64,000 nt of DNA from an uncultured candidate division Zixibacteria bacterium (GCA_963713865.1 OY970208.1:544001-608000); one strand, 5' to 3'. Positions 36,251-54,621 are shown, counted from the stretch's first letter. Notes: generated by a model not told the origin, from the sequence alone. Program-made: numbers and translations.

Positions 36251-38119
36251 ATGAAAGATCTAAAACCTGAAGATATCAATGTAATCGTCGCTACAGACTG
36301 CGGAAGCACCACTACCAAAGCGATCTTGATTGAGAAAAGAGGAAATGAATACCGCCTGATCGTGAGAGGTGAAGCCCCTACCACAGTTGAATTTCCTTTT
36401 GAGGATGTAACTATGGGAGTATTAAATGCCGTAGCTGAGGTGGAGGAGCTTTCTGGAAGAAAGATTCTGGATGAGAAAGGCAGGATTATTTCACCGGCTA
36501 AGGGAAACGTAGGTACCGACATCTATGTATCAACTTCAAGTGCTGGTGGCGGCTTGCAGATGATGGTCGCCGGAGTGGTAAGAAGTATGACCGCAGAAAG
36601 TGCTGAAAGAGCCGCCTTAGGAGCAGGTGCCATTGTGATGGATGTTATCGCCTCCAATGATAAAAGGCTTCCTCATCAGCAGATTCAGAGGATCAGACAT
36701 TTAAGACCGGATATGATTTTATTATCCGGAGGAATAGATGGGGGAACCACTACCCATGTGGTAGAATTAGCTGAGTTACTCTCTGCTGCAGACCCAAAAC
36801 CGAGATTAGGTATCGGTTACCAGCTACCGGTTATCTATGCCGGAAACATAAATGCGCGTGAGGCAATAAAAAATACCCTTTTAGATAAAGTGGATTTAAC
36901 CATAGTGGACAATATAAGACCAGTTTTAGAGAGGGAAAACCTCTTCCCTGCCCGTGAGAAAATCCACGACCTTTTTATGGAGCATGTGATGGCTCAGGCG
37001 CCCGGTTATAAAAAACTTATGACCTGGACCGATGCTCCGATTATGCCCACTCCAGGCGCAGTTGGTCTGATTATGAAAAAGATCGCAGATGAAGAAGGAA
37101 TTGAGGTGGTGGGTGTAGACATAGGTGGAGCAACTACTGATATCTTTTCCGTATTTCAAACCATCTTCAACCGGACCGTCAGCGCTAATCTGGGGATGAG
37201 CTATTCTGTATCCAATGTTTTTGCTGAAGCGGGATTGAGTAATGTGATGAGATGGGTCCCCTTTCATATGGATGAAAGAGATTTGAGAAACCGGGTCAAA
37301 AATAAGATGATTAGACCAACTACTATACCACAAACCTTAGAGGAGTTAATCTTTGAGCAGGCAATTGCTAAAGAGGCTTTAAGGCTTGCCTTTATCCAGC
37401 ATAAATCTTTTGCCACAGTTTTAAAAGGGATTCAACAGCAGAGAACCATAGCAGATGCCTTTGACCAGACCGCAGGTGGCCTGACACTGGTTAATATGAT
37501 GACCTTGAATATGCTCATTGGTTCAGGCGGGGTTTTATCCCATGCTCCGAGAAGAAATCAAGCCGCATTAATGTTAATCGATGGATTTTTACCAGAGGGT
37601 ACTACCAGATTAGCAGTTGACAGCATCTTTATGATGCCCCAGCTTGGAGTTTTATCCACTGTTCATACCAAAGCCGCAGTTGAAGTCTTCAATAAAGACT
37701 GCTTAATTCACTTAGGGACTTGCATCGCACCAGTTGGGGAACTTAAGGTCACTTACAGCTCTACGACCCGTAGGGAAGAAAAGGATATCTTAAAATATAA
37801 ATTTCAGATGCCGAATGGTGAAACCATTGAGGGTATTTTAAAATATGGTGAAATGAAAAAGTACCCCTTAGGCCTGGATGAAAAAGGAAACCCATTAAAA
37901 GCTAAGGCTACTTTGGAGCCGCTTAGAGGATTTGATGCTGGAGCAGGGAAAGGAACAAAAGTTGAAAAAGATATTTACGGTGGTGTAACTGGAATAATCT
38001 TAGATGGCAGAGGAAGACCTTTTGTTCTACCAACGGATGATAAAATCAGAGTTAAGAAACTAAAAGAGTGGATGATCGCATTAGGTATATATTCAAAGGA
38101 GATATTGGAAAGGCTGTAA
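36251..38119 (+). CDS. GlmL (glutamate/methylaspartate mutase L)-like ASKHA ATPase, long form
   Basis: Phosphate-1 DCGSTTTK, STSSAGGGL, SGGIDGG, MPTPGAV, phosphate-2 VDIGGATTD, GSGGVLSH. Confidence 0.8.
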   Translation: MKDLKPEDINVIVATDCGSTTTKAILIEKRGNEYRLIVRGEAPTTVEFPFEDVTMGVLNAVAEVEELSGRKILDEKGRIISPAKGNVGTDIYVSTSSAGGGLQMMVAGVVRSMTAESAERAALGAGAIVMDVIASNDKRLPHQQIQRIRHLRPDMILLSGGIDGGTTTHVVELAELLSAADPKPRLGIGYQLPVIYAGNINAREAIKNTLLDKVDLTIVDNIRPVLERENLFPAREKIHDLFMEHVMAQAPGYKKLMTWTDAPIMPTPGAVGLIMKKIADEEGIEVVGVDIGGATTDIFSVFQTIFNRTVSANLGMSYSVSNVFAEAGLSNVMRWVPFHMDERDLRNRVKNKMIRPTTIPQTLEELIFEQAIAKEALRLAFIQHKSFATVLKGIQQQRTIADAFDQTAGGLTLVNMMTLNMLIGSGGVLSHAPRRNQAALMLIDGFLPEGTTRLAVDSIFMMPQLGVLSTVHTKAAVEVFNKDCLIHLGTCIAPVGELKVTYSSTTRREEKDILKYKFQMPNGETIEGILKYGEMKKYPLGLDEKGNPLKAKATLEPLRGFDAGAGKGTKVEKDIYGGVTGIILDGRGRPFVLPTDDKIRVKKLKEWMIALGIYSKEILERL

Positions 38120-38261: not shown

Positions 38262-39389
38262 ATGGGACATGCATATACGCCGGGTTTAAAAGTAACTGAG
38301 AAGGTCTTAGTAACCAAGAAAAGGATTCTACCTTTGAAGGGCGAGGTCGTGGTAAAAGTTGGAGACAAGGTAAGCCCTGATACAGTGGTTGCCAGAACCA
38401 ATCTCCCTGGAAATGTGGAGCCGATAAATATAGCAAATATTTTGGGACTTCCTCCAGAGGATGTGCCTGAGCATATGTTGAGAAAAGAAGGGGAAAAAGT
38501 TAAAGAAAATGAAGTGATTGCCAAAAGCAAATCTTTCTTCGGGTTTTTCTCCTCAGAGTGCCGGTCCAAAGCTGAGGGCACAGTTGAAAGTGTTTCCTCC
38601 ATTACTGGACAGGTTTTGATTCGCGGAAACCCAATTCCAGTGGAGATAAAAGCCTATTTAGAGGGCGAGGTTGTCGAAGTCTTCCCAAAAGAGGGAGTTT
38701 CGGTTAGTACCTGGGGCTCTTTTATCCAGGGTATCTTCGGTATTGGTGGTGAGACCCATGGAGAGATAAAAATTGTAACCAAAGATAATACTGAAATCTT
38801 AACTGATACACTCATAGATAAAGAATGTGCTGGAAAGGTGATTGTGGGCGGAAGCCTGGTCACCAGCCTGGCAATAAAGAAAGCTGTTTCATCTGGAGTA
38901 AAGGGGATCGTGGTAGGGGGGTTTGATGATAAAGATCTAAGGGAATTTTTAGGGTATGATTTAGGAGTAGCCATAACCGGCTCAGAGGAGCTGGGCATAA
39001 CCCTGGTAGTAACCGAAGGTTTTGGGCAGATAAATATGGCAGAGAGAACCTTTAACTTGCTTAAATCCAAACAGGGAAAAAAGGCTTGTATAAACGGAGC
39101 CACCCAGATAAGAGCTGGGGTAATCAGACCTGAGGTGGTAATACCTTATACTGATGATATTCATAGAAAGATCGAAACTGAAGCCTTTGAAAATATCGGC
39201 CTGGACATCGGAAGCCCCATCCGGGTAATTCGACAACCCCATTTTGGCAGACTGGGTAAAGTTGTTAGTCTTCCTTCACCTTTGCAGAAACTTGAGTCCG
39301 AATCCTCTGCCCGGGTCTTGGAGGTTGAATTCGAGGATAAAACCAGAGCCATAATCCCCAGAGCTAATGTGGAGATGATAGAGGACTAG
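38262..39389 (+). CDS. Hypothetical cytoplasmic protein with repeated barrel-sandwich hybrid (biotinyl/lipoyl-like) motifs and a C-terminal KOW/SH3-like segment
   Basis: VVKVGDKV and RKEGEKVKENEVIA...AEGTVESV hybrid-like motifs; IQGIFGIGGE; GSPIRVIRQPHFGRLGKV. Confidence 0.7.
   Translation: MGHAYTPGLKVTEKVLVTKKRILPLKGEVVVKVGDKVSPDTVVARTNLPGNVEPINIANILGLPPEDVPEHMLRKEGEKVKENEVIAKSKSFFGFFSSECRSKAEGTVESVSSITGQVLIRGNPIPVEIKAYLEGEVVEVFPKEGVSVSTWGSFIQGIFGIGGETHGEIKIVTKDNTEILTDTLIDKECAGKVIVGGSLVTSLAIKKAVSSGVKGIVVGGFDDKDLREFLGYDLGVAITGSEELGITLVVTEGFGQINMAERTFNLLKSKQGKKACINGATQIRAGVIRPEVVIPYTDDIHRKIETEAFENIGLDIGSPIRVIRQPHFGRLGKVVSLPSPLQKLESESSARVLEVEFEDKTRAIIPRANVEMIED
39336..39389 (+). repeat. 54-bp direct repeat, copy 1 (3' end of gene 38262-39389)
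   Basis: Repeated at 42150-42203 with five synonymous differences. Confidence 0.92.
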
Positions 39390-39617: not shown

Positions 39618-42134
39618 ATGAAAAAAGCAATTATTTCGGTGCTTGCTCTTTTCTTATTGAGCACACCACAGATTTTTGCCTCTGGCAAAGCCAGACCGAT
39701 TCAAAATGACCAGAAGGCAAAAGAGAAGATGGTCTTGTTAAAAGCCCGGGATGGGGCTTTAACAAAGTTAAAATCTCAAAGCAAATCGAAAATAGATGTT
39801 CGTTTTGACGAAAAGGGGATTCCTACATTTTTGAAGGGTGAGCTTTCTTTACCCGCTTCTGGGGATAAAAAAGATTTCGCTTTACAATTTCTGGATGGAT
39901 ACAAAGAACTGTTTCTCCTTAAAGATCCCAGAGCTGAACTAAAAGTAAAATCAGTACAAGAGGACAAAGCAGGGAACATACATATAAGATTTGATCAGGC
40001 TTATCAGGGTATTCCAGTTTGGGGTGCTCAGCTTTTAGTCCATTTGCATAAAGACGGGTACATAAAGTCTGTGAATGGTCGTTGGGAACCTACCCCGCAA
40101 ATTGATGTTATACCAACTTTATCCAAGGAGAATGCTTTAAAGATTGCCAAGGACGACTTAAAAAATTTAGACAGTCTCTTAGAGAAGCCTGAAGTTGAGC
40201 TTTTGATTTTCCCCTGGCAAAACGAAACCCATTTAGCCTGGCAGGTAACTTTAATTCCTGACTTAGCCCACGACTGGAAATACTTTGTGGATGCGAAAAC
40301 AGGAACTATTTTGTTAAAATATAATGACGTGAAAGACGATGGGTCTGTTACTGCCTTAGGAGTTATGCTAAACGGGAGCACGGTTAGTTTAAATGCTTAT
40401 ATAATAACGAACACAATTTATCTTATAGATGCTACTAAGTCGATGTATGTTCCGCCAATTGATAGCTTAAAAGGGATAATAGTCACACTTGACGACCATA
40501 ATGATACTACTGGGACTATTCCGCCATCATACATTATTGACCCAAATTCAGATACTGTCTTCAATGACAACAATAATCTTAAAGCTGGAGTCAGTGCTCA
40601 TTATTATGTTGGCAAGGTCTATGACTACTTTTATAACACCTTTGGCAGAAATAGTTGGGATGATAATGGAGGTAGATTAATAAATATAGTTCATTTTAGA
40701 GTCAATTACAATAATGCTTTTTGGAATGGCTCATGTATGGTTTTCGGAGACGGAGATAGCTTAGAATTCTTACCTTTCGCAGGAGCCTTAGATATAACTG
40801 CTCATGAATTAGGTCATGCTGTCACACAAGCAACGGCTGGTTTAATTTATTTGGGTGAATCGGGTGCTCTAAATGAGCACCTTTCAGATGTTTGGGGTGC
40901 AATGGTGGATAGAAAGAATTGGCTAATTGGTGAGGACATCACACTAATGAGCCCTGGATTCGGGAGAGACATGGCAGACCCACACCAAGGGCTTCCAACC
41001 GTCCCAAATCTTCCCTACGCTCAACCTGCCAATATGAGCGAATATGTTGATTATCCTTCTTATGAACCTTATGACAACGGTGGAGTTCATGTAAATATGG
41101 GAATTCCAAACAAGGCCTGTTATCTTTTAGCCACAGCTATAACCAGAGATACCACCGAGCAACTATACTACCAAGCATTGAATTATTATTTGTTTCCGAC
41201 CTCAAGATTTGTTGACCTGAGACGGTATTTGCTTCAAGCGGCTGAAGACCTTTACTCCCTTTCCTCAAATTATAACCATATCATAAGTTCAATCGGGATG
41301 GCTTTCGACTCTGTGGGTGTAATTGATTTTTATAATTATGGCTTGGATATCCTTGCTTACGATGATGGAAATGCATACTACTATTTATATTCGGATGTCA
41401 ATATCTCCCATGCGGTTAGATTTACACCACATGCCCCCTGTAGCTTATTGGCTATTATAGCCCAGTTTTACACAACCGGAAACAATTCATATCTTCACAT
41501 CTGGAAAGATTCTCTGAGGTATGGAATTCCTGGAACTGAGTTGCTCAATTTGAATATAAACCGAACTATTACATCTCCAGATTGGGGATTAATAGACTTG
41601 ACTGGCTTCAATTTACATTTTGATGAAGACTTTTATGTGGGATTCACTGCTACATCTCCTGATTCTTTTCTCTTATCTGACTCTTTGATGGATGTTAATC
41701 ACTATACAGTTTATTATGATAGTGGCTCAGGTTGGTTTTGTGTAAATCCGCCGGGCGATTGGACAACGGTTCTTGGAGATCCTTTAATTCAAGCTATTGT
41801 TAAATATGACTCTTTGCCAACAGATGTAGATGAAGATGCTGTTACTCTTTTGCCAAGCACCTTCAATTTATATCAGAACTTTCCAAATCCTTTTAATCCT
41901 GAGACTGAAATCAGATATAATTTGCCAAAAGGCACTAATATCCAATTAACTGTATATAATCTCTTGGGGCAAAGGATTAGAACCTTGGTGAACGAATACC
42001 AAAATGCTGGACACAAATCTATCCACTGGGATGGTAAAGACGAGAAAGGAATAGAAGTTGCCAGCGGGATATATTTCTATCTCCTTAAAGGAGGGGAATA
42101 TAAGCAAAGCAAAAAAATGATTCTGTTAAGATAG
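39618..42134 (+). CDS. Secreted M4 (thermolysin-like) metallopeptidase with FTP/PepSY propeptide and C-terminal FlgD-Ig/T9SS-like sorting domain
   Basis: NNAFWNG, HELGH, GALNEHLSD, DNGGVHVN; LYQNFPNPFNPET...WDG...ASGIYFY...KKMILLR. Confidence 0.92.
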   Translation: MKKAIISVLALFLLSTPQIFASGKARPIQNDQKAKEKMVLLKARDGALTKLKSQSKSKIDVRFDEKGIPTFLKGELSLPASGDKKDFALQFLDGYKELFLLKDPRAELKVKSVQEDKAGNIHIRFDQAYQGIPVWGAQLLVHLHKDGYIKSVNGRWEPTPQIDVIPTLSKENALKIAKDDLKNLDSLLEKPEVELLIFPWQNETHLAWQVTLIPDLAHDWKYFVDAKTGTILLKYNDVKDDGSVTALGVMLNGSTVSLNAYIITNTIYLIDATKSMYVPPIDSLKGIIVTLDDHNDTTGTIPPSYIIDPNSDTVFNDNNNLKAGVSAHYYVGKVYDYFYNTFGRNSWDDNGGRLINIVHFRVNYNNAFWNGSCMVFGDGDSLEFLPFAGALDITAHELGHAVTQATAGLIYLGESGALNEHLSDVWGAMVDRKNWLIGEDITLMSPGFGRDMADPHQGLPTVPNLPYAQPANMSEYVDYPSYEPYDNGGVHVNMGIPNKACYLLATAITRDTTEQLYYQALNYYLFPTSRFVDLRRYLLQAAEDLYSLSSNYNHIISSIGMAFDSVGVIDFYNYGLDILAYDDGNAYYYLYSDVNISHAVRFTPHAPCSLLAIIAQFYTTGNNSYLHIWKDSLRYGIPGTELLNLNINRTITSPDWGLIDLTGFNLHFDEDFYVGFTATSPDSFLLSDSLMDVNHYTVYYDSGSGWFCVNPPGDWTTVLGDPLIQAIVKYDSLPTDVDEDAVTLLPSTFNLYQNFPNPFNPETEIRYNLPKGTNIQLTVYNLLGQRIRTLVNEYQNAGHKSIHWDGKDEKGIEVASGIYFYLLKGGEYKQSKKMILLR

Positions 42135-42203: not shown

Positions 42204-42656
42204 CCGGATTTCTGGATTATAAAGTCTTCAAGGTTTGAGATTTCAACTTTATCAAACTGCAAACCCACGTTGAGGGCAACGTGGGTATACTTTTTGGGGA
42301 GTGTTAACCTTCAGGTTTACCATAAATAAAACTAAAGTTTTACACTCCAGTATAGAAATCGGTAATCCCGCCTTGCCCCCAAGGTGGGATATTTGACCTG
42401 CCGCCAGTGGAGTTCCAAGCTACGCTAAATAAGTTTTCCAGAAATATCTAAAAAATTCCTTGACTAAAAAAATTAATCCGATAAATTAGAAGGCGAGATG
42501 GAGAACCCTTAAGAGTCTGGAGGTTCTTTCTGACAAAAAGGATTGCTCAAAACAGAAGATCTACTTTGAAGATTTGGGCAATTGATATTTAATTTTAGCC
42601 GCTAATCCATTTTAGAAGATTAGTGGTTTTTGTTTTTAATATCTTAAGGATACTCG

Positions 42657-43862
42657 GTGAGAATAGTTAGAGCAATGAGCAAGAGAAATAAGAGGATAAA
42701 CTGGAATTTAGTTTCACTCCTTTTTATTTTTAGCCTATCTATTTTAAGTCCCGCTTTTGCCCAAGAAGATACCCTTCCCCCCTCTTCACCCACAGATGTT
42801 ATGGCTAAAGATACTCCGAATGATGCGGGAGGGAGTATCACCATAACCTGGAATAAATCTATGGATGATGGTGCTGGAAAAAATAACGTGACCGGATATT
42901 TGATTTATCGTTCTGAAGAGCGGGAGGGAGAATATAAAGAGATTGGACAGGTCGCCAAAGGAAGCAAAGAGTTCACTGACGGCAACACCAAAGATAAAAT
43001 TAACTATTATTACAAGATAAAGGTTATAAATAAATCTGGTCTTTTTTCTTTTTCTGAACCCAGTCTAAGCGCTTTATCTAAAGCTCAATGGTTTTCTTCA
43101 GGGAGAAAAAATACTTTGATTGCTGCACTGATCCTGGGAGGGTTAATACTCTACTTTATAAGTCAGGCCAGAGCAGGAAAAGAGCTGTTCATTAGAAAAA
43201 TTGCCGGCTTGGACGCGGTAGACGATGCGGTTGGTAGGGCCACGGAGATGGGTAAGAAGATCCTGTATATTCCCGGCACCCAGGATATGGATAATGTCCA
43301 GACCATCGCTGGAGTTACTATCCTAAGCCGGGTTGCCAAAATAACTGCAGAATATGAAACACCACTGGAGGTGCCGGTTTCCCGTTCCTTGGTAATGATC
43401 ACCTGTCGGGAAGTGGTCAAAGAAGCATATGCTTCTGCAGGCCGTCCGGATGCCTTTAAAGAGGATATGGTCCATTACCTGACCGATGATCAATTCGGCT
43501 ATGCGGCTGGAATCGATGGCCTGATCTTGAGAGAGAAACCAGCTACCATCTTTTATCAAGGTGCTTTTTATGCAGAATCTTTAATTATGGCTGAAACCGG
43601 AAACTCCATTGGAGCGATTCAAATTGCCGGAACCGCTATGCCAGCTCAAATCCCCTTCTTTTTTGCCTCCTGTGATTACACTTTAATCGGCGAAGAGCTT
43701 TTCGCGGCATCAGCTTATCTTTCCAAAGAGCCAAAACTTCTGGGTAGCCTGAAAGGGCAGGATATTGGCAAAGCCATTATTTTGCTGATGCTGACTGCAG
43801 GGATTCTTTTCATAACCACTGGATTGTGGAGAGGGTTTGATAGTTTGTTTATAGTTCAATAG
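42657..43862 (+). CDS. Module A1: signal peptide + fibronectin type III + TM + DUF6754-like domain
   Basis: DTPNDAGGSITITW...YYYKI (FN3); IRKIAGLDAVDDAVGRATEMG; LIGEELFAASAYLS. Confidence 0.8.
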   Translation: MRIVRAMSKRNKRINWNLVSLLFIFSLSILSPAFAQEDTLPPSSPTDVMAKDTPNDAGGSITITWNKSMDDGAGKNNVTGYLIYRSEEREGEYKEIGQVAKGSKEFTDGNTKDKINYYYKIKVINKSGLFSFSEPSLSALSKAQWFSSGRKNTLIAALILGGLILYFISQARAGKELFIRKIAGLDAVDDAVGRATEMGKKILYIPGTQDMDNVQTIAGVTILSRVAKITAEYETPLEVPVSRSLVMITCREVVKEAYASAGRPDAFKEDMVHYLTDDQFGYAAGIDGLILREKPATIFYQGAFYAESLIMAETGNSIGAIQIAGTAMPAQIPFFFASCDYTLIGEELFAASAYLSKEPKLLGSLKGQDIGKAIILLMLTAGILFITTGLWRGFDSLFIVQ

Positions 43863-43870
43863 GAGAAAAG

Positions 43871-44524
43871 ATGCGAAGAGAAATACCCCTGATTTTGACT
43901 GCAACCGTGGGAATAGTTTATATAATCTCATTTTTCATACCCCATAGACCATTTGGCTCGGTGGAAACACTTTTCTCCGACTGGATTTTAATCATAGCCG
44001 CATTTGCCATCTGGTTAGGGGCATTAAATCTCCTGAGAGTATCGGCTGATAAAATTTACAGGAAAAAAAAGGACTGGTTTTATGCTCTGGTCACCATTTT
44101 AAGCTTTTTTTTGATTGCCATAATTGGGTTTTTCTTTTCCCGGGGCTCTCATTTTCAAGATGTCGGAACCTCTTTCGACTATCTTTATAGAAACGTATAT
44201 AACCCCCTTTCCGCCACTATGTTTGCCATCCTGGCATTTTTTGTCGCCTCAGCTTCTTACCGGGCATTTAGAGCCAGAAGCTGGGAGGCAACCCTGCTTT
44301 TGCTCGCCGCATTTTTTGTAATGTTAGGAAGGGTGCCTATCGGTGATATGATTTCCGGGTTTCTACCGGAAAATATTCGGCTCTCCGCGGTTGCTACTTT
44401 CATTATGAACATTCCTCAGTCTGCTGGACAGAGAGCTATTATGATAGGAATTGGTTTAGGTATTATCTCCACGGCTTTACGTTTAATCCTGGGGATTGAG
44501 AGAACTTATTTAGGTGGGGATTAG
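43871..44524 (+). CDS. Module B1: uncharacterised multi-TM protein
   Basis: About 5-6 TMs; FFVASASYRAFRARS; LGIERTY. Confidence 0.8.
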   Translation: MRREIPLILTATVGIVYIISFFIPHRPFGSVETLFSDWILIIAAFAIWLGALNLLRVSADKIYRKKKDWFYALVTILSFFLIAIIGFFFSRGSHFQDVGTSFDYLYRNVYNPLSATMFAILAFFVASASYRAFRARSWEATLLLLAAFFVMLGRVPIGDMISGFLPENIRLSAVATFIMNIPQSAGQRAIMIGIGLGIISTALRLILGIERTYLGGD

Positions 44525-44540
44525 AAAGAGGAGTAAAAGG

Positions 44541-45383
44541 ATGAATTTTTTTGATAAATTAATGAAGATAGACCGGAGGATAATCTTCCTCTTCGTCGCA
44601 GCTGCTGTGATTTTACCCTTTTTCTTATCTATTCACCAGAAAATTTTAATCTCCCCGGAGGTGCAGGGTTTGTATGATGCTTTTGAAAGTCTGCCCCCCG
44701 GCTCCAAAGTTATGATCTCCTATGACTATGATCCAGCTTCAGCCCCGGAGCTTCAACCTATGGCAGTGACAGCCATGAAATATTGCTTTGCCAAAGGGCT
44801 TAAAGTGATAATCCTGGGCCTTTGGCCCCAGGGCTCTATCCAGGCCAATATGGCTATTGAAAGCGCACTGGAAGATACGATTGTTAAAGAAAAAAATCCT
44901 CAATATGGGAAAGACTGGGTTAATTTAGGATACATGTCAGGAAATGAGCTGGTAATTCAAAGAATGGGAACAGATATACCGGTTACCTTCCCTCGAGATT
45001 ATCAAGGAAATCCAGTGGAAGACCTTCCTCTAATGCAGGGGATTAAAAACTTCTCAAATGTTGATTTCATTTTCAATCTTTCGGCCGGTTATCCCGGAAC
45101 AGTAGAGTGGGTGCAATTTGCCGTAGACAGGTTCCATGCTAAATTGGGGGCGGGGAATACCGCGGTACAAGCCCCGCAGATGTATCCTTATTTGCGGGCA
45201 GGCCAGTTAGTTGGCCTTCTGGGTGGCATGAAGGGAGCATCCGAGTTTGAGAAGTTAACTGACTTTGAAGGCAAGGGAACTAAATTTATGCTCTCTCAGT
45301 CCTTTTCTCATGCCATTATCATAATCTTTATAATCATCGGAAACCTGGCCTATTTTATTTCCCGAGGTATAAAGAAAAAATAG
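44541..45383 (+). CDS. Module C1: TM + alpha/beta domain + TM protein
   Basis: IDRRIIF, DYDP...EL.P, YPYL..GQLVGLLGGMKGA.E. Confidence 0.8.
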   Translation: MNFFDKLMKIDRRIIFLFVAAAVILPFFLSIHQKILISPEVQGLYDAFESLPPGSKVMISYDYDPASAPELQPMAVTAMKYCFAKGLKVIILGLWPQGSIQANMAIESALEDTIVKEKNPQYGKDWVNLGYMSGNELVIQRMGTDIPVTFPRDYQGNPVEDLPLMQGIKNFSNVDFIFNLSAGYPGTVEWVQFAVDRFHAKLGAGNTAVQAPQMYPYLRAGQLVGLLGGMKGASEFEKLTDFEGKGTKFMLSQSFSHAIIIIFIIIGNLAYFISRGIKKK

Positions 45384-45395
45384 CTGGAGGAAAGT

Positions 45396-46052
45396 ATGGA
45401 AACTTTTGGACTTTGGATAGCTGCTCTTCTAACCTTGGGAATAATGTCTTTCCTATACAAGGATAACCCTATATATAAGCTCTGCGAATCTATCTTCATT
45501 GGAATCTCTGCCGGGTACTGGTTTGTCAGCCTTTTCTGGCAGAGTATGTACCCCCGGCTTTACCTGAATATCCGGGGTGCCGTATCTACCCTCTTACATG
45601 AGGGAAGGATCTCTGATGATCGGTGGCTTTACCTGGTGGCTGGGATCCTGGGAGTGATGATGCTTTTGCGCCTTATCCCGAAAATCGGCTGGATTTCCCG
45701 CTGGCCCCTTTCCTTTATAGTGGGTTCAACCGCAGGCCTTTATTTTATCACTTACCTGCAGAGCAATATAATGAACCAGATTCGTAGTACCATTATCCCG
45801 ATTTATGTGCCTGGAAACCTGGGAATCTCCATCTCAAATCTAATAGTTTTTGTGGGAGTTTTCTGCGGCCTGGTTTATTTTTTCTTTTCTCGGGAACATA
45901 AAGGGGCTTTTGGCGGAGCAGCCAAGGTGGGGATCTGGTTTCTAATGATAACCTTTGGCGCTTCCTTCGGGTTCACAGTTATGTCCCGAATGTCCCTGTT
46001 AATTGGTAGAATCGACTTTCTCTTCGGAACCTGGTTAGGCTTGATAAAATGA
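45396..46052 (+). CDS. Module D1: uncharacterised multi-TM protein
   Basis: SFLYKDNP.YK, YFFFSREHKG, FLMITFGASFG. Confidence 0.8.
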   Translation: METFGLWIAALLTLGIMSFLYKDNPIYKLCESIFIGISAGYWFVSLFWQSMYPRLYLNIRGAVSTLLHEGRISDDRWLYLVAGILGVMMLLRLIPKIGWISRWPLSFIVGSTAGLYFITYLQSNIMNQIRSTIIPIYVPGNLGISISNLIVFVGVFCGLVYFFFSREHKGAFGGAAKVGIWFLMITFGASFGFTVMSRMSLLIGRIDFLFGTWLGLIK

Positions 46053-46085: not shown

Positions 46086-47267
46086 ATGAAAATAACAAAA
46101 TATATTCCATTTTTAATTTTACTGATACTTCTCTTCTACGACCTGTCTTCCCCTCAAGAGGCTTTACCTCCTCTTCCTCCAACCGATGTAAGGGTTAAGG
46201 ATGCTCCTAACGATAACGGCACGGCATTAATAATCACCTGGAAACATTCACCGGATAGCAACAGGATCTTAGCTTACGAAATTTTAAGGTCTGATTCTCC
46301 AGAAGGTGAGTTCGTGGTTGTAGGAAAGGCTACTCCCAGTGATACTCTGTATAAAGATAAAGGCGATAAGGAAAAGGAAAGCCCTAACTATTTCCCCAGT
46401 CATAAAAATTACTATTATAAAGTAAGAGCAAGAATAGATAATCTTTATTCTGACTCAAAGGTCTCTTTACCAGCTTATGCTTATCAACAGTGGTACCATA
46501 CCGGTAAAACACCGGTCCTGGTAGCAGTTATAATCTTCACCATCTTAACCATTGTTTTTATAAACATAGCTAAGAAAGGGAAGGAACTTTATGTCCGGCC
46601 CCTGGCTGGAATTATGGCGGTAGATGAGGCAATTGGCAGAGCAACAGAGATGGGAAGACCTATACTTTTTATCTTAGGTTCAGGCACTGCGGCTGATATT
46701 GCTACCATTGCCGGTTTTACTATCTTAAGCCGGATAGCCAAGAAGACCGCGGAATATAAGACAAAGATTATAGTTCCCTGCAATGACCCGATTATTATGG
46801 CGGTTGCCCAAGAAACAGTCAAATCGGCTTATATGGATGCAGGCAGACCAGATGCTTATCAGGAAGAGAATATATTCTTTCTCACCTCTATGCAATTTGC
46901 CTATGCAGCAGGGGTAAATGGGATTATGTTAAGGGAGAAAACCGCCACCAATTTCTATATGGGAATGTTTTATGCGGAGGCATTGATTTTTGCTGAGACC
47001 GGTACGATTGCCGGCTCGATTCAGATATCGGGGACGGACCAGATGTCTCAGCTTCCGTTCTTTGTAGCAGCTACGGACTATACCCTAATCGGTGAGGAAC
47101 TTTACGCAGCAAGTGCCTATCTTGGTAGGGAGCCATTACTTTTGGGAGCACTCAAAGCCCAGGACTGGGCCAAAGTGATACTCTTGGTTTGCTTGATATT
47201 GGGAATTGTCTTTACCAGTTTTCATTTAGATTTCTTCGCTAACCTTTTCAAATATACTTTGGAATAA
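46086..47267 (+). CDS. Module A2: FN3 + DUF6754-like
   Basis: Paralogue of A1 (DAPND...W...YYYKV; AIGRATEMG; LIGEELYAASAYL). Confidence 0.8.
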   Translation: MKITKYIPFLILLILLFYDLSSPQEALPPLPPTDVRVKDAPNDNGTALIITWKHSPDSNRILAYEILRSDSPEGEFVVVGKATPSDTLYKDKGDKEKESPNYFPSHKNYYYKVRARIDNLYSDSKVSLPAYAYQQWYHTGKTPVLVAVIIFTILTIVFINIAKKGKELYVRPLAGIMAVDEAIGRATEMGRPILFILGSGTAADIATIAGFTILSRIAKKTAEYKTKIIVPCNDPIIMAVAQETVKSAYMDAGRPDAYQEENIFFLTSMQFAYAAGVNGIMLREKTATNFYMGMFYAEALIFAETGTIAGSIQISGTDQMSQLPFFVAATDYTLIGEELYAASAYLGREPLLLGALKAQDWAKVILLVCLILGIVFTSFHLDFFANLFKYTLE

Positions 47268-47272
47268 AGAAT

Positions 47273-47923
47273 ATGAGAAGAGAATTGCCTATCTTAGTGG
47301 TTTTGATATCCGGGCTTTTTATGGCGGTGCAGTATTTTGTTCCCAGTGGTCCAGCAGAGTTTGTGCAGGAATATGCTATGGACTGGGTAATAATTATTGG
47401 AGCATTTGCTATGGGTTTGGGATTGTGGAGCTTGACCAAAGTTAATTGGATAAAACTTCAGAGAAGAACGCCCGGCTGGGGATATAATTTAGTAACCATT
47501 TTAGGAATGGTTTTTATGCTGGTGGTGGGACTGATTTGGGATCCAAAATTGGGGCTTTTCCCAGGAGCAAAATCGCAAGTAAGTGGAACCTGGTTTATGA
47601 ACTTTTTTGTTCATGTTTATACTCCTATCCAAGCGGTGATGTTTTCGCTGTTGGCTTTTTATATCGCCTCTGCCGCCTATCGTGCCTTTAGGGCAAGGAC
47701 TATTTTGGCTACTATCCTTTTGGTCACGGCCATAGTTATTATGTTAAGACTGATTCCGTTAGGGTCTATCTCAGGCATAAATCAGTGGTTGGCTAACTGG
47801 ATTCTGATAGTACCGAATATGGCTGCAAAAAGGGCAATCTGGATGGGAGTTGGTTTGGGTATGGTGGCTATGGCCTTGAAAATAGTCTTGGGAATTGAAC
47901 GTTCTTATATGGGCAGAGACTAA
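47273..47923 (+). CDS. Module B2
   Basis: MRRELP, FYIASAAYRAFRAR, LGIERSY. Confidence 0.8.
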   Translation: MRRELPILVVLISGLFMAVQYFVPSGPAEFVQEYAMDWVIIIGAFAMGLGLWSLTKVNWIKLQRRTPGWGYNLVTILGMVFMLVVGLIWDPKLGLFPGAKSQVSGTWFMNFFVHVYTPIQAVMFSLLAFYIASAAYRAFRARTILATILLVTAIVIMLRLIPLGSISGINQWLANWILIVPNMAAKRAIWMGVGLGMVAMALKIVLGIERSYMGRD

Positions 47924-47924
47924 T

Positions 47925-48782
47925 ATGGATTTTTATGACAGACTAATGAATTTGGATCGCAGGTGGGTTTATCTGTTTGTGGCGATTGCGGTGATTTTGC
48001 CGATCCTTTTGCAGGACTTTGGAGTTCCGATAATCATACCCCCATATATCACCCCAGAGACAAAAAGCGTTTACAGTTTTGTAGAAAAGCTGCAAGCTGG
48101 TGATGTACTTTTTTTGGCAATAGATTATGATCCAATGGCTATGGCGGAGTTGCATCCTGTAGCCAGAGCTATATTGAAGCAATGTTTCAAAAAAGATGTT
48201 AAAGTAATTATTTCCGCTTTAAGCCAGAATGGTCCGGGAATGGCAGAACAGCTCATATCCCAAACTGGCCGAGAATACAATAAAGTTAATGGGGTGGATT
48301 ATGTTTACTTGGGTTATAAGCCCTTTCCCGCCATTGTGATTATGGGTATGAGTCAGAACTTTAAACTCTTTTTCCCCAAAGATTATTACGGCAACCCGCT
48401 TGATTCTTTGCCAATGATGACAAAGATAAGAAGTATCAAAGAAACCAAAGGAGTAATTGATGTTGCAGCAGGGAGCGTGGCTGACTATTGGATAAACGAA
48501 GGAGCTGGAAGATATAATTATCCTTTGGCTTTGTGTGTAACCGGGGTTATGGCAGCGGATTATTATCCTTTTTTGAATTCCGGCCAGATATTTGGTCTTA
48601 TAGGAGGAATGAAAGGCGCGGCCGAATATGAGTATTTGGCAGAAAAAGGTGGGTACATGAAAAAAGAAGAGCTTAAGGCTACGCAAGGAATGCCCATACA
48701 GACTTTTGCCCATATTGTAGTCATACTCTTCATTATCATTGGGAATGTTGGGTATTTTATGTCCAAAAGAAAGAAATCTTAA
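47925..48782 (+). CDS. Module C2
   Basis: LDRRWVY, DYDP..AEL.P, YPFLNSGQIFGLIGGMKGAAEYE. Confidence 0.8.
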   Translation: MDFYDRLMNLDRRWVYLFVAIAVILPILLQDFGVPIIIPPYITPETKSVYSFVEKLQAGDVLFLAIDYDPMAMAELHPVARAILKQCFKKDVKVIISALSQNGPGMAEQLISQTGREYNKVNGVDYVYLGYKPFPAIVIMGMSQNFKLFFPKDYYGNPLDSLPMMTKIRSIKETKGVIDVAAGSVADYWINEGAGRYNYPLALCVTGVMAADYYPFLNSGQIFGLIGGMKGAAEYEYLAEKGGYMKKEELKATQGMPIQTFAHIVVILFIIIGNVGYFMSKRKKS

Positions 48783-48792
48783 GGAGACAAAG

Positions 48793-49452
48793 GTGACTTT
48801 GGTTAACTTTATCTGGCTTACCGTTGAAGCTATGCTGGTCCTGTTTACCTTCTCTTTTTTATACAAAGATAATCCGTTTTATAAATTCGCCGAGCATCTG
48901 GTAGTGGGAGTCTCAGCCGGGTATTTTGCAGTCCTCCTTTATTATAGCTCTTTTGTACCAAAGGTCATAGATACCATATTCAAACAGGGCTGGTGGTATT
49001 ACTCTATTCCGGCGATCTTGGGGGTTTTGATGTGGACACGCTTTTCCAAGAAATTCTCATGGATATCACGTTTTTCTATTGCCTTCTACATGGGCATAGG
49101 AACTGGTGCAGCTATACCTTTGACATTGCAAAATTACGTGTTGATACACTTAAGGAAGACCATACAACCGGTCAATTTCACCAGCTTAAATGGCATCTGG
49201 CAGTTTTTGGTGGTGTTATTTGTTTTTTCCACTTTGACCTATTTCTTCTTTTCCCGGGAACACAAAGGTCTATTTGGTGCCTCAGCTAAATTAGGTATCT
49301 GGGTATTGATGATAGCCTTTGGAGCAGGATTTGGCCTTACCGTTATGGGCAGGGTCGCCCTTCTGGCTGAAAGGGTCATATTTTTAAGAGACTACTTCGT
49401 CGGGATGAAATATTATCTCTATCTGTTACTTAAATATGGATTACCATTATGA
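48793..49452 (+). CDS. Module D2
   Basis: AGGAG RBS + GTG; SFLYKDNPFYKFAEH, YFFFSREHKG. Confidence 0.8.
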   Translation: MTLVNFIWLTVEAMLVLFTFSFLYKDNPFYKFAEHLVVGVSAGYFAVLLYYSSFVPKVIDTIFKQGWWYYSIPAILGVLMWTRFSKKFSWISRFSIAFYMGIGTGAAIPLTLQNYVLIHLRKTIQPVNFTSLNGIWQFLVVLFVFSTLTYFFFSREHKGLFGASAKLGIWVLMIAFGAGFGLTVMGRVALLAERVIFLRDYFVGMKYYLYLLLKYGLPL

Positions 49453-50339
49453 AAAAACTCCTCTGGTTGAAAAACTTTTTCTTTTTTCTATTTATTTATT
49501 TTACCCTTTCCCCCTTATCTTCAGCTTCAGAAACTGAGACCTCTGCTGAAATTATCTCCGCTACCCAGTGGTTCAATCCTCAAAGGATAAATGTCTTCAT
49601 CATTTTAATTGTTTTTTTTGCCTTCGTGCTTTATTTCATCCAGAAGGCAAAGAAGGGAGGAAGCCTGTTTGTGCGCAGGATTGCAGGACTGGATGCAATT
49701 GAAGATGCAGTGGGAAGAGCAACTGAAATGGGAAAGCCAATCCTTTATATCTCCGGGATTGAGGATATGGACAATCTCCAGACCGTTGCCAGTATGATTA
49801 TTTTGGGTAATGTGGCTGAGATGGTTGCCGCTTATGATGTTCCTCTCATTGTTCCGGTTTGTCTCCCCTTTGTAGTGACAGTGGCTGAGGAATCTGTTAA
49901 ACAGGGTTATGCGAAAGCGGGACGGCCGGAGGCTTATAATCGCAATAATGTAAGGTTTCTGACCAGTGAGCAGTTTGCCTATGCGGCTGGGGTTAACGGG
50001 ATAATGCTTCGGGAGAAACCTGCAGCCAATTTTATGTTTGGTTCATTCTATGCGGAATCTCTGCTTATGGCTGAAACTGGTCTTTCAACTGGAGCTATTC
50101 AGGTAGCTGGGACTGCTAATATTCACCAGCTCCCCTTCTTTGTGGTAGCGTGTGACTTCACCCTTATCGGAGAAGAGCTTTTCGCTGCCTCTGCCTATCT
50201 TTCACGGGAACCCAAGCTTTTAGGCAGTTTAAAAGCCTCGGATTTAGCCAAGTTCTTGATAATGGTAATGTTAATATCTGGAGTTTTATTGGAAACTTTC
50301 GGAATTACAAAATTTACCTCCTGGTTTTTTGTGCAGTAG
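49449..50339 (+). CDS. Module A3: DUF6754-like, lacking the FN3 domain
   Basis: Signal peptide directly followed by QWFN...VRRIAGLDAIEDAVGRATEMG. Confidence 0.8.
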   Translation: MKKLLWLKNFFFFLFIYFTLSPLSSASETETSAEIISATQWFNPQRINVFIILIVFFAFVLYFIQKAKKGGSLFVRRIAGLDAIEDAVGRATEMGKPILYISGIEDMDNLQTVASMIILGNVAEMVAAYDVPLIVPVCLPFVVTVAEESVKQGYAKAGRPEAYNRNNVRFLTSEQFAYAAGVNGIMLREKPAANFMFGSFYAESLLMAETGLSTGAIQVAGTANIHQLPFFVVACDFTLIGEELFAASAYLSREPKLLGSLKASDLAKFLIMVMLISGVLLETFGITKFTSWFFVQ

Positions 50340-50340
50340 A

Positions 50341-50407
50341 GAAGTGCAATCCGCCAAAAGCGGATTGTTGCTAATTTTAAATATGCAAGAGCAAGCTCTT
50401 GCACTCC
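50341..50407. repeat. REPIN-like pair between A3 and B3
   Basis: GAAGTGCAATCCGCCAAAAGCGGATTG ... GCAAGAGCAAGCTCTTGCACTCC. Confidence 0.65.
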
Positions 50408-50449
50408 GACAAGACGTGAGAAGTAAGAAGTGAAAAGATAAAAAAACCT

Positions 50450-51064
50450 ATGCGTAGAGAAGTTCCCATAATCATCTGTTTCTTAGCTGGAGCTTTCTTC
50501 ATTGGAAACTACTTCAGCCCCAAACTTCAGCCAGTAGCTCAGGTAGTTAATCAATGGGCAATAATTTGCATTGCCTTTGCCTATGTCCTGGGAGTTGCCA
50601 ATATCTTCAGGGTAAACTCTCAGGTAATAGCCAGGAAGGGTAAAGACTGGGTTTATAAAATCGTTTTAGTGGCAGGGTTAATCCTGATGATCTGTTTCGG
50701 AATCCTGGGTGAAGTCAGGGAAGGCACAGCTTTTAACTGGGTCTTTATGAACGCCATCTATCCTATGCAGGCGACAATGTTTGCCCTTTTAGCCTTTTAT
50801 ATCGCCTCAGCCGCCTTCAGGGCTTTCAGGATAAGAAGCTGGGAAGCCGCTCTCTTAGGAATTACCGCAGTCCTGGTGATGATCGGCAGGGTGCCGTTGG
50901 GTGAATTGGTTTGGAAAGGTTTCCCACTCTTTACTGAATGGATTATGAATGTCCCTCAGCTTGCAGCTAAAAGAGCCATAATGATTGGAGCGGCTTTAGG
51001 CGCCATCTCAACCGGAATCAAAGTTCTTATCGGACTGGAGAAAACCTATATGGGCGGAGAATAA
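50450..51064 (+). CDS. Module B3
   Basis: MRREVP, FYIASAAFRAFRIRS, IGLEKTY. Confidence 0.8.
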   Translation: MRREVPIIICFLAGAFFIGNYFSPKLQPVAQVVNQWAIICIAFAYVLGVANIFRVNSQVIARKGKDWVYKIVLVAGLILMICFGILGEVREGTAFNWVFMNAIYPMQATMFALLAFYIASAAFRAFRIRSWEAALLGITAVLVMIGRVPLGELVWKGFPLFTEWIMNVPQLAAKRAIMIGAALGAISTGIKVLIGLEKTYMGGE

Positions 51065-51072
51065 TTGTATCT

Positions 51073-51912
51073 ATGAAAAAATTCTTTGAAAAACTTGAGA
51101 AATTAGACCGAAGGATAATCTTTATCTTCGTGGCTATTGCCCTGATCTTACCCCTTTTTATCCCCTTGAATATCAAGTTCTCTGTTACCCAGCCGGTGCA
51201 AAGCTTTTACGATACTATAGAATCTTTACCTCCTGGCTCAAAAATCCTTTTGAGCGCCGATTATGACCCCGGCTCTATGCCGGAGCTCTGGCCAATGCAT
51301 CTGGCAGCAGTGAGACAACTCTGCAAAAGAGGTATAAAAATAATCTCCATCCAGCTCTGGGCAACTGGCTCCCCCTTAGTTGAAAGAGCTTTTAATGAAA
51401 TAGCCGTAGGTGAGTTTCATAAAAAGTATGGTGAGGATTTTGTGAATTTAGGTTTTAAAGAGGGAAGAGAGGTGGTAATGGTCTCCATGGGGAATTCAAT
51501 CCCCCAGACTTTCCCCACAGATTATCACGGTAATAAAACCGAAGATTTACCCATAATGCAAGGTGTAAAAAATTTCAGTGACTTAGGTATGATCGTTAAT
51601 ATCTCCGGGGGTCTTCCTGGAACCAAGGAATGGATTTTGCAGGTGGTTTCCCGTTTTCATATAAAGCTTGCCTCCGGCTGTACCGCAGTCAGTGCCCCGG
51701 AATTCTACCCCTATTTACAATCCGGGCAGTTAGTCGGACTTTTAGGCGGGATGAAAGGTGCGGCAGAATATGAACAACTAGTAGGGGTTACAGGATTGGG
51801 CAAAAGGGGTATGGACTCACAGTCTGTAGCTCATTTAGTGATCTTTTTATTCATCCTGATCGGGAACATTGCTTATTTTTCAACCAGAGGAATGAAAAAG
51901 GAGAAAAGCTAA
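51073..51912 (+). CDS. Module C3
   Basis: LDRRIIF, DYDP..PEL.P, YPYLQSGQLVGLLGGMKGAAEYE. Confidence 0.8.
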   Translation: MKKFFEKLEKLDRRIIFIFVAIALILPLFIPLNIKFSVTQPVQSFYDTIESLPPGSKILLSADYDPGSMPELWPMHLAAVRQLCKRGIKIISIQLWATGSPLVERAFNEIAVGEFHKKYGEDFVNLGFKEGREVVMVSMGNSIPQTFPTDYHGNKTEDLPIMQGVKNFSDLGMIVNISGGLPGTKEWILQVVSRFHIKLASGCTAVSAPEFYPYLQSGQLVGLLGGMKGAAEYEQLVGVTGLGKRGMDSQSVAHLVIFLFILIGNIAYFSTRGMKKEKS

Positions 51913-51917
51913 TAAAT

Positions 51918-52596
51918 ATGCCTTCATCTGAATTCATAGGAACCTGGCTTGCCGCAGGACTAACCATATTTTGTTTCAGTTTCTTATATAAGGATAACCC
52001 TTTTTATAAGTTTGCGGAACATCTCTATGTGGGAATCTCTGCTGGCTATTGGACCTCTATGGAATATCACAACGTATTCTTACCTAACCTTTGGGATCCC
52101 CTGATGAGACTGGACTTGAATCTTCTCTTCTCTTTTCCTGAGCTTGGATTTGCAATGATGTGGCAATCTATGATCCTTATAGTCCCATTCATTTTTGGAA
52201 TCTTACTTTTTACCCGCCTTACTAAGAATTTTGGCTGGCTTTCCCGCTGGTCAATGGCTTTAATCATCGGCATATTTGCCGGAATCGCTATTATAGGATA
52301 CAGCACCGGTGATTTAATAACCCAGATCTATGCCAACCTGCTTCCATTATGGACCGGCAACTGGCTTTCCTCTTTGAATAATATCATTTTAATCATAGGG
52401 GTTATTACTTCTCTAATCTACTTTTTCTTCTCCAAGGAGCACAAGGGGACTTTAGGTGGTGCCGCCAAGATCGGGGTTCTGGTTTCTGATGATCTCCTTT
52501 GGCGCCTCCTTCGGGTATACGGTTATGTCCCGTATGTCCCTTTTAATCGGCAGGATCTATTTTATTTTTGGAGAGTGGCTGAGATTGATAAAATAA
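51918..52596 (+). CDS. Module D3, with +1 frameshift at ~52477
   Basis: Removing one T at 52477-52478 gives IGVWFLMISFGASFGYTVMSRMSLLIGRI...WLRLIK*, matching the D1 C-terminus. Confidence 0.8.
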
Positions 52597-52785
52597 AAAG
52601 TGGTAGGAGTACGTTGTCCCTCCTTTGGCGGGATGCCCCTTGTATATTATATTTATGGTTATATTTTATGAGAGCATAAGGGAAACAACCCTTCAAATTA
52701 GAATAGGAGGGAACCTTGCCGACAGATCGTTTGCCCCTACAATATTTCCCAAAACACCTCTCTTAATTTATTACCACTCAGAAAT

Positions 52786-52825: not shown

Positions 52826-54529
52826 TTATTTCTTCTTTAAAAGAGTCGAGCTTAAAGAAACTTTTTTAGTTACAGTTAATCCTCCTCTGGGATCACTATC
52901 CGTTACACTGATTGTGGCACTTTTTATGGTAGTATCTGTTGGTGCAGTAAAGAATAAGTTAGAGGTTTCTCCATAGCCATTGGTGATTTTAGGCGAGCCA
53001 GAGATCGAACCGGAGGTAACAGTGGCAGAGATAGAATGACCTCCTAAGGGGTTACCTGCCCGATCCTTGATTATAACTGTAAAGGGCTCAGTAGCCCCAT
53101 AAGCCACTGTTCCTGTAATATCTACCAAACAGCTCTTATAATAAGCATAGCCGGTTAAGAAATTCACTTGAACCGTAGCAGAAGCAAAGCCTGATTTTGC
53201 AGTCAGGTTGGAGACTGCACCAATACCATCGTCAGGAGAAACCGGTGAATAATCCCTGGTTAGAACCTGGCTGACAAGCTTGGTTTCAAAACTTGAAGTA
53301 TTTACACCATCTGACGTAGCACCAGAACCACAAGAACCGAAATCTGTTTCCATATTGACTGCAGTCCCGTCCACTACGAAATTCCCATTAAGATCCAGAA
53401 CACTAACTTCAACATCTCCTTTGGATACTCCATCTGCTAACAGAGACTCGGGATAAGTTATGAAGGTAATAGAATACGGTGGACCGGAAACGATCAACAC
53501 TCCAGTATCAGCCACTGTCCCGCCTGAGGTAGAAGCCCAAATATAAGCCAGTCCGTCATTTCTCGGTTCACCTGAATGATAAGCTGATGTTGCCAATCCT
53601 CCCGAAGTTAAAGTATAGGCATCCACCATCCCCTCTTCTGTTCCGAAATAGACTGCGGTGCTGTCCTGAACCGGATTACCATAAACGTCATCTACCATAG
53701 CTAAGACATCTGCAGTAGCATTCACCACGTCCCACCCTCGAATATTTAAAGGTTTAATCCCTAAGGTGAGATAAGCTGGAGGACCCGCATGAATTGCTAC
53801 ACGGGTAACCCTGGAACGGATCGAATCCACCTCTGCCCTTAACTCTACAGTGCCGGAGATGGTTCCGCTGTTCAAGGTTACAAACGCACATCCTGAATCA
53901 TTTGTTTCCTTGGTAACCGGCCCATAATCCTGATCCTCAAGATTTTCACCTCCGTGCGGACCATTTAAAATCCGGACAACAATCTCATTCCCCGACCCGA
54001 CTCTTCCTCCATATTCATTATAACCCACTGCTAATAAAACTGAAGACTCTATCCCTCCGGTTCCTTTAACCTGAATAGAAGGCCGGGTTGAGTAGAACTC
54101 AATGCTGGTAATTGAGCCTGAAGGCGTCGGAGTAGTAGTAATACGTAAAGTCGTGGTTATAGTATCGCCAGTTATTACCGCCTGCAAAGTAACTGTGCCT
54201 GTATCAGTGGAGATAAAATAGGTGGAGGCTATTCCTGAAACATCAGTCGTGTCAAAACTATTTCTGAAGGAGCCTGAAGAGGAAGTCGTGGCTGAGAAAT
54301 TAACCCGGATATTAGCCAAGGGATCGTCGTTTTGGTCTACGACCTGAGCCCGGACCAAACTCGAATCCCCTACCTGAATAGAAGTGGGGGAAGCGCTGAA
54401 TGACTTTAAAAGCTGTTGAGTTTCCGAAGAAGGAGATGAGGTAGATTTCTTCTTACATCCTACAGTGAAGATTACTAATGTCAATGATATGAAAGCTATC
54501 CAGAAAATAAATGATACTTTTCTTTTCAT
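52826..54529 (-). CDS. Lipoprotein with tandem bacterial Ig-like (Big_1/invasin-type) domains
   Basis: Lipobox TVGC; repeated V.D.NGNP / TD.SG.A motifs; Ser/Thr-rich. Confidence 0.78.
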   Translation of the reverse strand: MKRKVSFIFWIAFISLTLVIFTVGCKKKSTSSPSSETQQLLKSFSASPTSIQVGDSSLVRAQVVDQNDDPLANIRVNFSATTSSSGSFRNSFDTTDVSGIASTYFISTDTGTVTLQAVITGDTITTTLRITTTPTPSGSITSIEFYSTRPSIQVKGTGGIESSVLLAVGYNEYGGRVGSGNEIVVRILNGPHGGENLEDQDYGPVTKETNDSGCAFVTLNSGTISGTVELRAEVDSIRSRVTRVAIHAGPPAYLTLGIKPLNIRGWDVVNATADVLAMVDDVYGNPVQDSTAVYFGTEEGMVDAYTLTSGGLATSAYHSGEPRNDGLAYIWASTSGGTVADTGVLIVSGPPYSITFITYPESLLADGVSKGDVEVSVLDLNGNFVVDGTAVNMETDFGSCGSGATSDGVNTSSFETKLVSQVLTRDYSPVSPDDGIGAVSNLTAKSGFASATVQVNFLTGYAYYKSCLVDITGTVAYGATEPFTVIIKDRAGNPLGGHSISATVTSGSISGSPKITNGYGETSNLFFTAPTDTTIKSATISVTDSDPRGGLTVTKKVSLSSTLLKKK

Positions 54530-54621
54530 AACCACTCCCTTTTTAAAGATTTTTTGCATATAAGATTATTCTAAATAGATTTATCGGCAGGTTTAACTAA
54601 GAGTTTAGAGGAAAAGATGTT

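Follow-up and report, generated by a model that had tools for sequence, protein, structure and literature searches.

A four-gene membrane module of Zixibacteria with two alpha/beta subunits of predicted opposite orientation that are not demonstrably related

Are two neighbouring membrane subunits of an uncultured bacterium diverged copies of one protein that were inserted into the membrane in opposite directions? The question is raised by a stretch of 64,000 nucleotides from a candidate division Zixibacteria genome (GCA_963713865.1, OY970208.1:544001-608000; hereafter the window, with positions counted from its first letter), in which the region 42657-45383 holds three genes in the same direction, A1, B1 and C1, with D1 next downstream. 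A sequence-only reading had proposed that A and C are distant homologues of opposite topology, possibly matched by B and D. Our analyses make us fairly confident that A and C share a layout and face opposite sides of the membrane without being demonstrably related. The earlier observation is in this sense partly confirmed: the mirrored layout is real and holds for B and D as well, while the likeness in sequence does not rise above chance.

Architecture and predicted orientation of the four subunits

The four-gene unit A-B-C-D is present in three tandem copies in the window and in five in the genome (a single contig of 2.72 Mb), the two further modules lying elsewhere. In the first copy, which is on the plus strand throughout, A1 (42657-43862; 401 residues, DUF6754) is followed by B1 (43871-44524; 217 residues, six predicted transmembrane (TM) helices), C1 (44514-45383; 289 residues, no family) and D1 (45396-46052; 218 residues, about six TM helices). 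When gene order was counted for 61 A genes with at least 2.6 kb of downstream DNA, drawn from 74 loci of many phyla, B, C and D were found to follow A in that order in 58; two of the remainder were followed by B and C only, and one, at a locus containing a run of N, by nothing. A1, A2 and A3 match PF20539 (DUF6754) end to end (E 1e-113 to 3e-122; 407, 377 and 392 bits, respectively, against a gathering score of 27), with five matches in the genome, and a search with the 12 module proteins returned no Pfam or NCBIfam family above cut-off for B, C or D. DUF6754 has no described function, a literature search by the name of PF20539 found no paper, and the Pfam entry is silent on the partners B, C and D.

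AlphaFold 2 models of A and C, built with alignments of 128 and 130 relatives, respectively, both show the TM helix, alpha/beta domain, TM helix arrangement that had been described from the sequence (predicted local distance difference test scores of 92 for A and 96.7 for C). In each the domain consists of six beta-alpha units, although the soluble parts, at about 190 and 215 residues, are smaller than the ~230 residues first estimated. A1 begins with a signal-like N-terminus (42657-42761) and an FN3 domain (42792-43079) with the beta-sandwich that defines this fold, followed by TM1 (43098-43172), the six-unit domain, which is predicted to be cytoplasmic (43203-43724), and TM2 (43731-43820). 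In C1, the residues D-R-R precede TM1 (residues 21-37; 44574-44624), after which come the six beta-alpha units of the predicted outward domain (residues 48-249; 44655-45260) and a second TM helix (residues 254-288; 45273-45377), with a basic tail. The start of C1 is more likely the ATG at 44541, which gives a protein of 280 residues, because its closest relative has that same length.

The orientation of the two subunits was predicted from the lysines and arginines (K+R) that lie no more than 15 residues from a TM helix, counted in the 128 A and 130 C relatives; like all orientations given here, it is a prediction and not the outcome of an experiment. For A, the domain side carries 3.6 and 2.4 basic residues against 1.8 and 0.9 on the outer side, and is the more basic of the two in 127 of 128 relatives (99%). 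For C the bias is reversed: the termini carry 3.5 and 3.8 basic residues and the domain side 1.6 and 1.5, and in 123 of 130 relatives (95%) it is the termini that are more basic. These counts support a cytoplasmic A domain, in keeping with its signal-like start and the FN3 domain before TM1, together with a C domain that lies outside while both C termini lie inside. The counts agree with the placements made earlier from the signal and FN3 domain of A and from the basic D-R-R of C.

The suggestion that B and D might match this inversion was likewise borne out by prediction. The successive loops of B carry 1.9, 0.6, 4.7, 1.3, 3.2 and 1.9 basic residues, which reads as a protein of six helices with its N- and C-terminus inside. 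The charge bias of D itself is weak. Two natural C-D fusions, P0209 and P0255 (598 residues), have exactly one additional strong TM helix between the last helix of C and the first of D, and because both of the fusions found add this one helix, the N-terminus of D is probably outside, opposite the C-terminus of C. B and D therefore also look opposite in orientation.

Conservation within the module peaks on its predicted inner face. In A, 32 columns are invariant, including those of G-R-x-T-E-x-G, G-T, Q-x-P-F-F and G-E-E, and its relatives are 44-64% identical to A1 across phyla. C has no invariant column at all; D-Y-D-P, E79, P82, D134, D162, Q231 and some others are near-invariant. At E<=0.001, C by itself has 3655 representative relatives. 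The outward domain of C is the most variable part of the module and takes large insertions near position 130, including CARDB or HEAT repeats. A CARDB domain lies inside the C domain of the relative P0145, as would be expected if that domain is outside; the HEAT repeats found at the same place in another relative say little on location. In B, the motif Y-R-A-F-R-A-R is conserved at the inner end of TM4 and the third, outer loop tolerates an insertion of about 385 residues that matches no family, while D conserves F-L-Y-K-D-N-P and F-F-S-x-E-H-K-G, both in inner loops. The C-D fusions and the insertion cases of C and B are represented by proteins P0209, P0255, P0145, P0225 and P0196, and by the loci L091 (6165-7949) and L103 (4182-6017).

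Searches for relatives of known structure or name returned little for any subunit. With the whole A model, Foldseek against the PDB and a wider search gave lists dominated by FN3 domains, and a sequence search of the PDB gave FN3 matches only. One alpha/beta match of the A model, the LNS2 domain of Nir2, was set aside as unusable (root-mean-square deviation 27, TM-score 0.2-0.3). All 30 feature matches of C in the ESM Atlas were unnamed clusters of C's own kind, a search there restricted to named entries gave no usable match, and nothing below E 0.69 was found for C by sequence in the PDB, where D had no match either.

Sequence tests of kinship between A and C

Although the layouts agree, every sequence test applied to the proposed homology of A and C failed. 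BLASTP aligned only 11 residues (best E 0.87). In profile comparisons, hhalign gave a probability of 0.8% with three paralogues of each subunit and 1.2% with 132 A against 237 C sequences, where the control pairs A-D, A-B and C-D gave 1.9%, 0.4% and 0.4%, respectively. A separate run reached 10%, confined to 35 columns of the FN3 part, and adding secondary structure from the AlphaFold 2 models gave 3.8% by aligning TM1 of A with TM2 of C; the alpha/beta domains were not aligned with one another in any run. For B and D, the comparison that had been recommended along with that of A and C, the probability was 0.2%. Between A and C, the lack of significant profile similarity (0.8-10% over all runs) is an outcome that the sequence-only reading had itself named as a refutation, and as far as profiles go its proposal is refuted.

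Searches with hidden Markov models (HMMs) gave a similar picture. The A-family HMM found none of 237 C sequences at E<=0.01, and the C-family HMM gave five weak matches among 132 A sequences (best E 0.0023); among the matches listed, all four paired TM2 of C with TM1 of A. These two helices (45273-45377 and 43098-43172), which are predicted to have the same orientation and each end in Y-F followed by basic residues, are the only weakly aligning stretches of A and C (hhalign P 0.019). When the alpha/beta domains of A and C were aligned by a profile-profile Smith-Waterman procedure, the score was 15.5, lower than the 18.7 +/- 4.2 obtained after the columns had been permuted, and 74 of 100 permutations reached the observed value. 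Conserved residues of A and C differ throughout, the near-invariant positions of C falling elsewhere than those of A.

The C-terminal segments that had been aligned by eye, residues 321-355 of A (43617-43721, plus strand) and 211-246 of C (45144-45251, plus strand), do join equivalent elements, each comprising strand 5, a helix, strand 6 and a helix. As evidence of common descent, however, the alignment did not hold: the profile score of the pair is 9.4 against 7.5 +/- 1.6 for 400 random 35x36 segment pairs drawn from the two domains, 11% of which do as well.

It could be argued that these tests simply come too late, and that A-B and C-D arose from one duplicated gene pair whose copies were inserted in opposite directions, giving a pseudo-symmetric complex with related domains on both faces whose likeness in sequence has since been lost. 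Such a history would accommodate the common TM, (beta-alpha)x6, TM layout and similar size of A and C, their opposite K+R bias, the inside N-terminus of B and outside N-terminus of D in proteins of about six TM helices and about 215 residues each, the strictly alternating gene order, the fall of the two by-eye segments on equivalent elements, and a diagonal that is slightly high when the beta-alpha units are compared one by one (see below). It has to contend with the absence of any profile signal despite deep profiles, with the 0.2% probability for B and D, whose loop lengths do not correspond, with conserved motifs of A and C that have nothing in common, and with a sole weak likeness that joins helices of the same orientation, TM2 of C and TM1 of A. 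To our knowledge, moreover, the known inverted pairs are small and have no soluble domains. We consider this history unlikely; the likeness of A and C is probably that of two common alpha/beta domains, each mounted on two membrane helices, rather than that of a diverged duplicate. Were the duplication nonetheless true, it would be the first inverted-repeat design known among proteins whose soluble domains are large.

EmrE, YdgE/YdgF, the DUF606 pairs and Fluc/CrcB are antiparallel homologous pairs or dual-topology small membrane proteins (PMC3962082; see also PMC3755343 and PMC4560821). Pairs of the EmrE, DUF606 and Fluc type resemble the module in that the two genes are neighbours within an operon, the partners have as many TM helices as each other and their K+R bias is opposite. 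They are plainly homologous, measure about 100-150 residues and lie wholly in the membrane, whereas A and C lack detectable homology and each carry a soluble domain of ~200 residues, so that the two domains would have to fold in different compartments. Since the defining test of homology failed, we do not file the module with the inverted pairs.

Possible functions of the module

What might such a module do? We lean towards reading it, as a whole, as a four-gene inner-membrane uptake complex in which A and C are mirrored yet not demonstrably related. Five diverged copies per genome, an outward domain that varies, a pair of six-helix subunits and the association with proteases and outer-membrane receptors are best accounted for by a family of uptake systems. 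On this proposal, A, B, C and D would form one hetero-oligomeric complex, in which the variable outward domain of C and the FN3 domain of A may receive substrate, B and D would provide the path through the membrane, and the conserved cytoplasmic domain of A, with the inner loops of B and D, would couple or gate transport. The most conserved surfaces are all predicted to be cytoplasmic, namely the A domain, the motif at the inner end of TM4 of B and the two inner-loop motifs of D. Peptides or amino acids would be the most likely cargo. Taken on its own, the assignment to transport is tentative, and the earlier suggestion of ligand binding on both membrane faces is purely inferential. A complex prediction (A residues 145-401 with B, C and D, and with C as partner) scored C at 0.70 three times, at 0.00 twice when C was replaced and at 0.69 when A was replaced, a result that counts neither for nor against binding.

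A conserved pair of neighbouring genes lies upstream of the array. E (36251-38119, plus strand; 622 residues) is a GlmL/MutL-family ASKHA ATPase-like protein, and F (38262-39389, plus strand; 375 residues), which belongs to no family and has no match by sequence in the PDB, is its partner: a 924-residue paralogue fuses E-like and F-like parts (L110, 2804-5575, minus strand), from which we take it that E and F work together. E matches PF13941 over its full length (E 1e-129, 433 bits), as do the GlmL/MutL accessory proteins of glutamate mutase, and a literature search by the name of that family found no paper. E differs from those accessory proteins in having ~140 extra C-terminal residues, in having F, not a mutase, as its partner, and in its link to a membrane module; it also scores below the NCBIfam equivalog cut-offs (230 against 475 bits for GlmL, and 225 against 600 and 172 against 204 for others). 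We take E to be a member of the superfamily and probably not an accessory protein of the named enzymes. Within the uptake complex, the E-F pair may serve the coupling or gating role of A. At 26 of 74 diverse loci, some of them from Acidobacteriota, Planctomycetota and Fermentibacteria, E or F adjoins the module; the same holds for 11 of 30 loci from the phylum, where the flanks span only 1.5 kb. Of 101 genomes of the phylum, 100 have F, as a single copy with 62-96% identity; by hand count, one of the listed A genes is no more than about 6 kb away in at least roughly half of them.

The same evidence could be read quite differently, with the module taken as membrane-bound machinery for catalysis, sensing or energy transduction, such as might power or serve outer-membrane processes, and with its A domain as the catalytic or coupling part that E-F works on. 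The A domain does show the conservation of an enzyme, R, E, D, Q and T residues being invariant in it; E is ASKHA ATPase-like and is fused to F in a paralogue; TonB-dependent receptors follow D at two loci; and the module resembles no transporter family. Then again, no catalytic family matches A, neither E nor F is present at 48 of 74 module loci, and a range of substrates accounts better than a single machine for the variable outward domain and for the presence of five diverged copies in a genome. We give this account a minor though appreciable share of the probability, and regard it as somewhat unlikely.

Several observations weigh against an uptake complex of mirrored but unrelated subunits. 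The module matched no ABC, TRAP or channel family, nor any other transporter family. A and C have the same order of secondary-structure elements, and in both the last domain helix is almost directly continuous with the TM helix; B and D resemble one another in size and likewise look inverted. When the six beta-alpha units of A and C were paired in order, they scored 42.3 against 38.8 +/- 3.3, with 110 of 720 permutations as high, which at most leans weakly towards kinship and does not amount to a signal. E and F are single-copy against five copies of the module, in several genomes of the phylum F and the listed A genes are on different contigs, and the neighbours of the module vary widely.

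Among known systems, the module can be compared by description with ABC importers that have a membrane-tethered binding domain, which it resembles in its outward tethered alpha/beta domain, two subunits of about six helices, a cytoplasmic alpha/beta domain and many paralogues. No ABC ATPase or permease family was found at cut-off among the 12 module proteins; B1 matches the ABC TMD0 domain PF24357 weakly, at 17 bits against a cut-off of 27. A profile of B also gave a weak hit to the K2P channel TASK-3 (E 0.23) over residues 67-118 of B1 (44070-44225), in the region from the pore helix to M2. Selectivity-filter positions pair with non-filter residues in this alignment and no Pfam channel family matched B; the likeness to a K2P pore is a lead only.

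If the module is an uptake system, it may be a main route of nutrient import in protein-degrading bacteria of sediment and groundwater, and would represent a new transporter architecture. Only one of its four subunits falls in a catalogued family, which is a DUF, and the module has no characterised relative. The predicted mirroring of A with C and of B with D makes it a clean test case for inverted-topology evolution in proteins with large soluble domains, and the confident models of A and C, together with the conserved C-D fusions, open this question to direct testing. The boldest version of this idea, an ancient duplicated two-gene unit (a two-helix alpha/beta subunit and a six-helix subunit) whose inverted copies are pseudo-symmetric about an axis in the membrane plane, as part of an uptake machine of a new class that an actin-fold ATPase operates, seems to us a long shot.

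Distribution, neighbouring genes and further copies

PF20539 was found in all 101 genomes sampled from the phylum, mostly with 4-5 matches each that are often 3.5 kb apart in tandem, and in none of 14 control genomes. A also occurs in WOR-3, Stahlbacteria, Poribacteria, Acidobacteriota, Planctomycetota, Fermentibacteria/Aegiribacteria, Cloacimonadota and Edwardsbacteria. The module is accordingly universal and multi-copy in a candidate phylum (4-5 copies in genomes of 2-5 Mb) and present in at least eight other, mostly uncultured, phyla. A1 is closer to its nearest relatives in other genomes (58-64% identity) than to A2 and A3 (48-55%), and the module copies are thus old paralogues.

Between F and A1 lies a gene for a thermolysin-like M4 protease (39618-42134) that carries propeptide motifs as well as a sorting tail for type IX secretion; a terminator-like hairpin follows it at 42263-42286. 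In other genomes this position is taken by M28 peptidases directly upstream of A (four loci) or by a C25 peptidase (one locus). An apparent fusion of A to an S49 peptidase (L042, 4863-7247) was dropped as not real, as its reading crosses a run of N. The TonB-dependent receptors mentioned above lie directly after D at L078 and L083, and further neighbours include an OPT peptide transporter and amino-acid catabolic genes, plus many unrelated genes. Within the window, Rfam gave no match and promoter-like and terminator-like sites were no more frequent than in shuffled sequence; none of six proteins was matched by PADLOC.

The second module (46086-49452, plus strand) comprises A2 (46086-47267), B2 (47273-47923), C2 (47895-48782) and D2 (48739-49452), and the third (49449-52679, plus strand) comprises A3 (49449-50339), which has no FN3 domain, B3 (50450-51064), C3 (51073-51912) and D3 (51918-52679). 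Genes within the array overlap or are separated by 5-33 nucleotides, the exception being the 110 nucleotides between A3 and B3. The D3 frame is broken near a G-run at about 52470-52480 (within 52440-52600): frame 0 continues into residues unrelated to D, and it is in the +1 frame that the conserved C-terminus of D is found, with a stop near 52590. The break stems either from an assembly error in the homopolymer or from a genuine frameshift.

Past the third module, a minus-strand gene (52826-54559) runs convergent to the array and encodes a 577-residue lipoprotein-like protein with Big_1 / invasin D3 Ig-like repeats. Elsewhere in the genome, the fourth module (G000:C1:274520-280157) is interrupted by three open reading frames between B4 and C4, which were named from their translations only: one DNA methyltransferase-like, one of 364 residues and one STAS-like of 123 residues. 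A5, in the fifth module (G000:C1:1268864-1269640), measures 224 residues from the first ATG, GTG or TTG, within an open frame of 322 residues.

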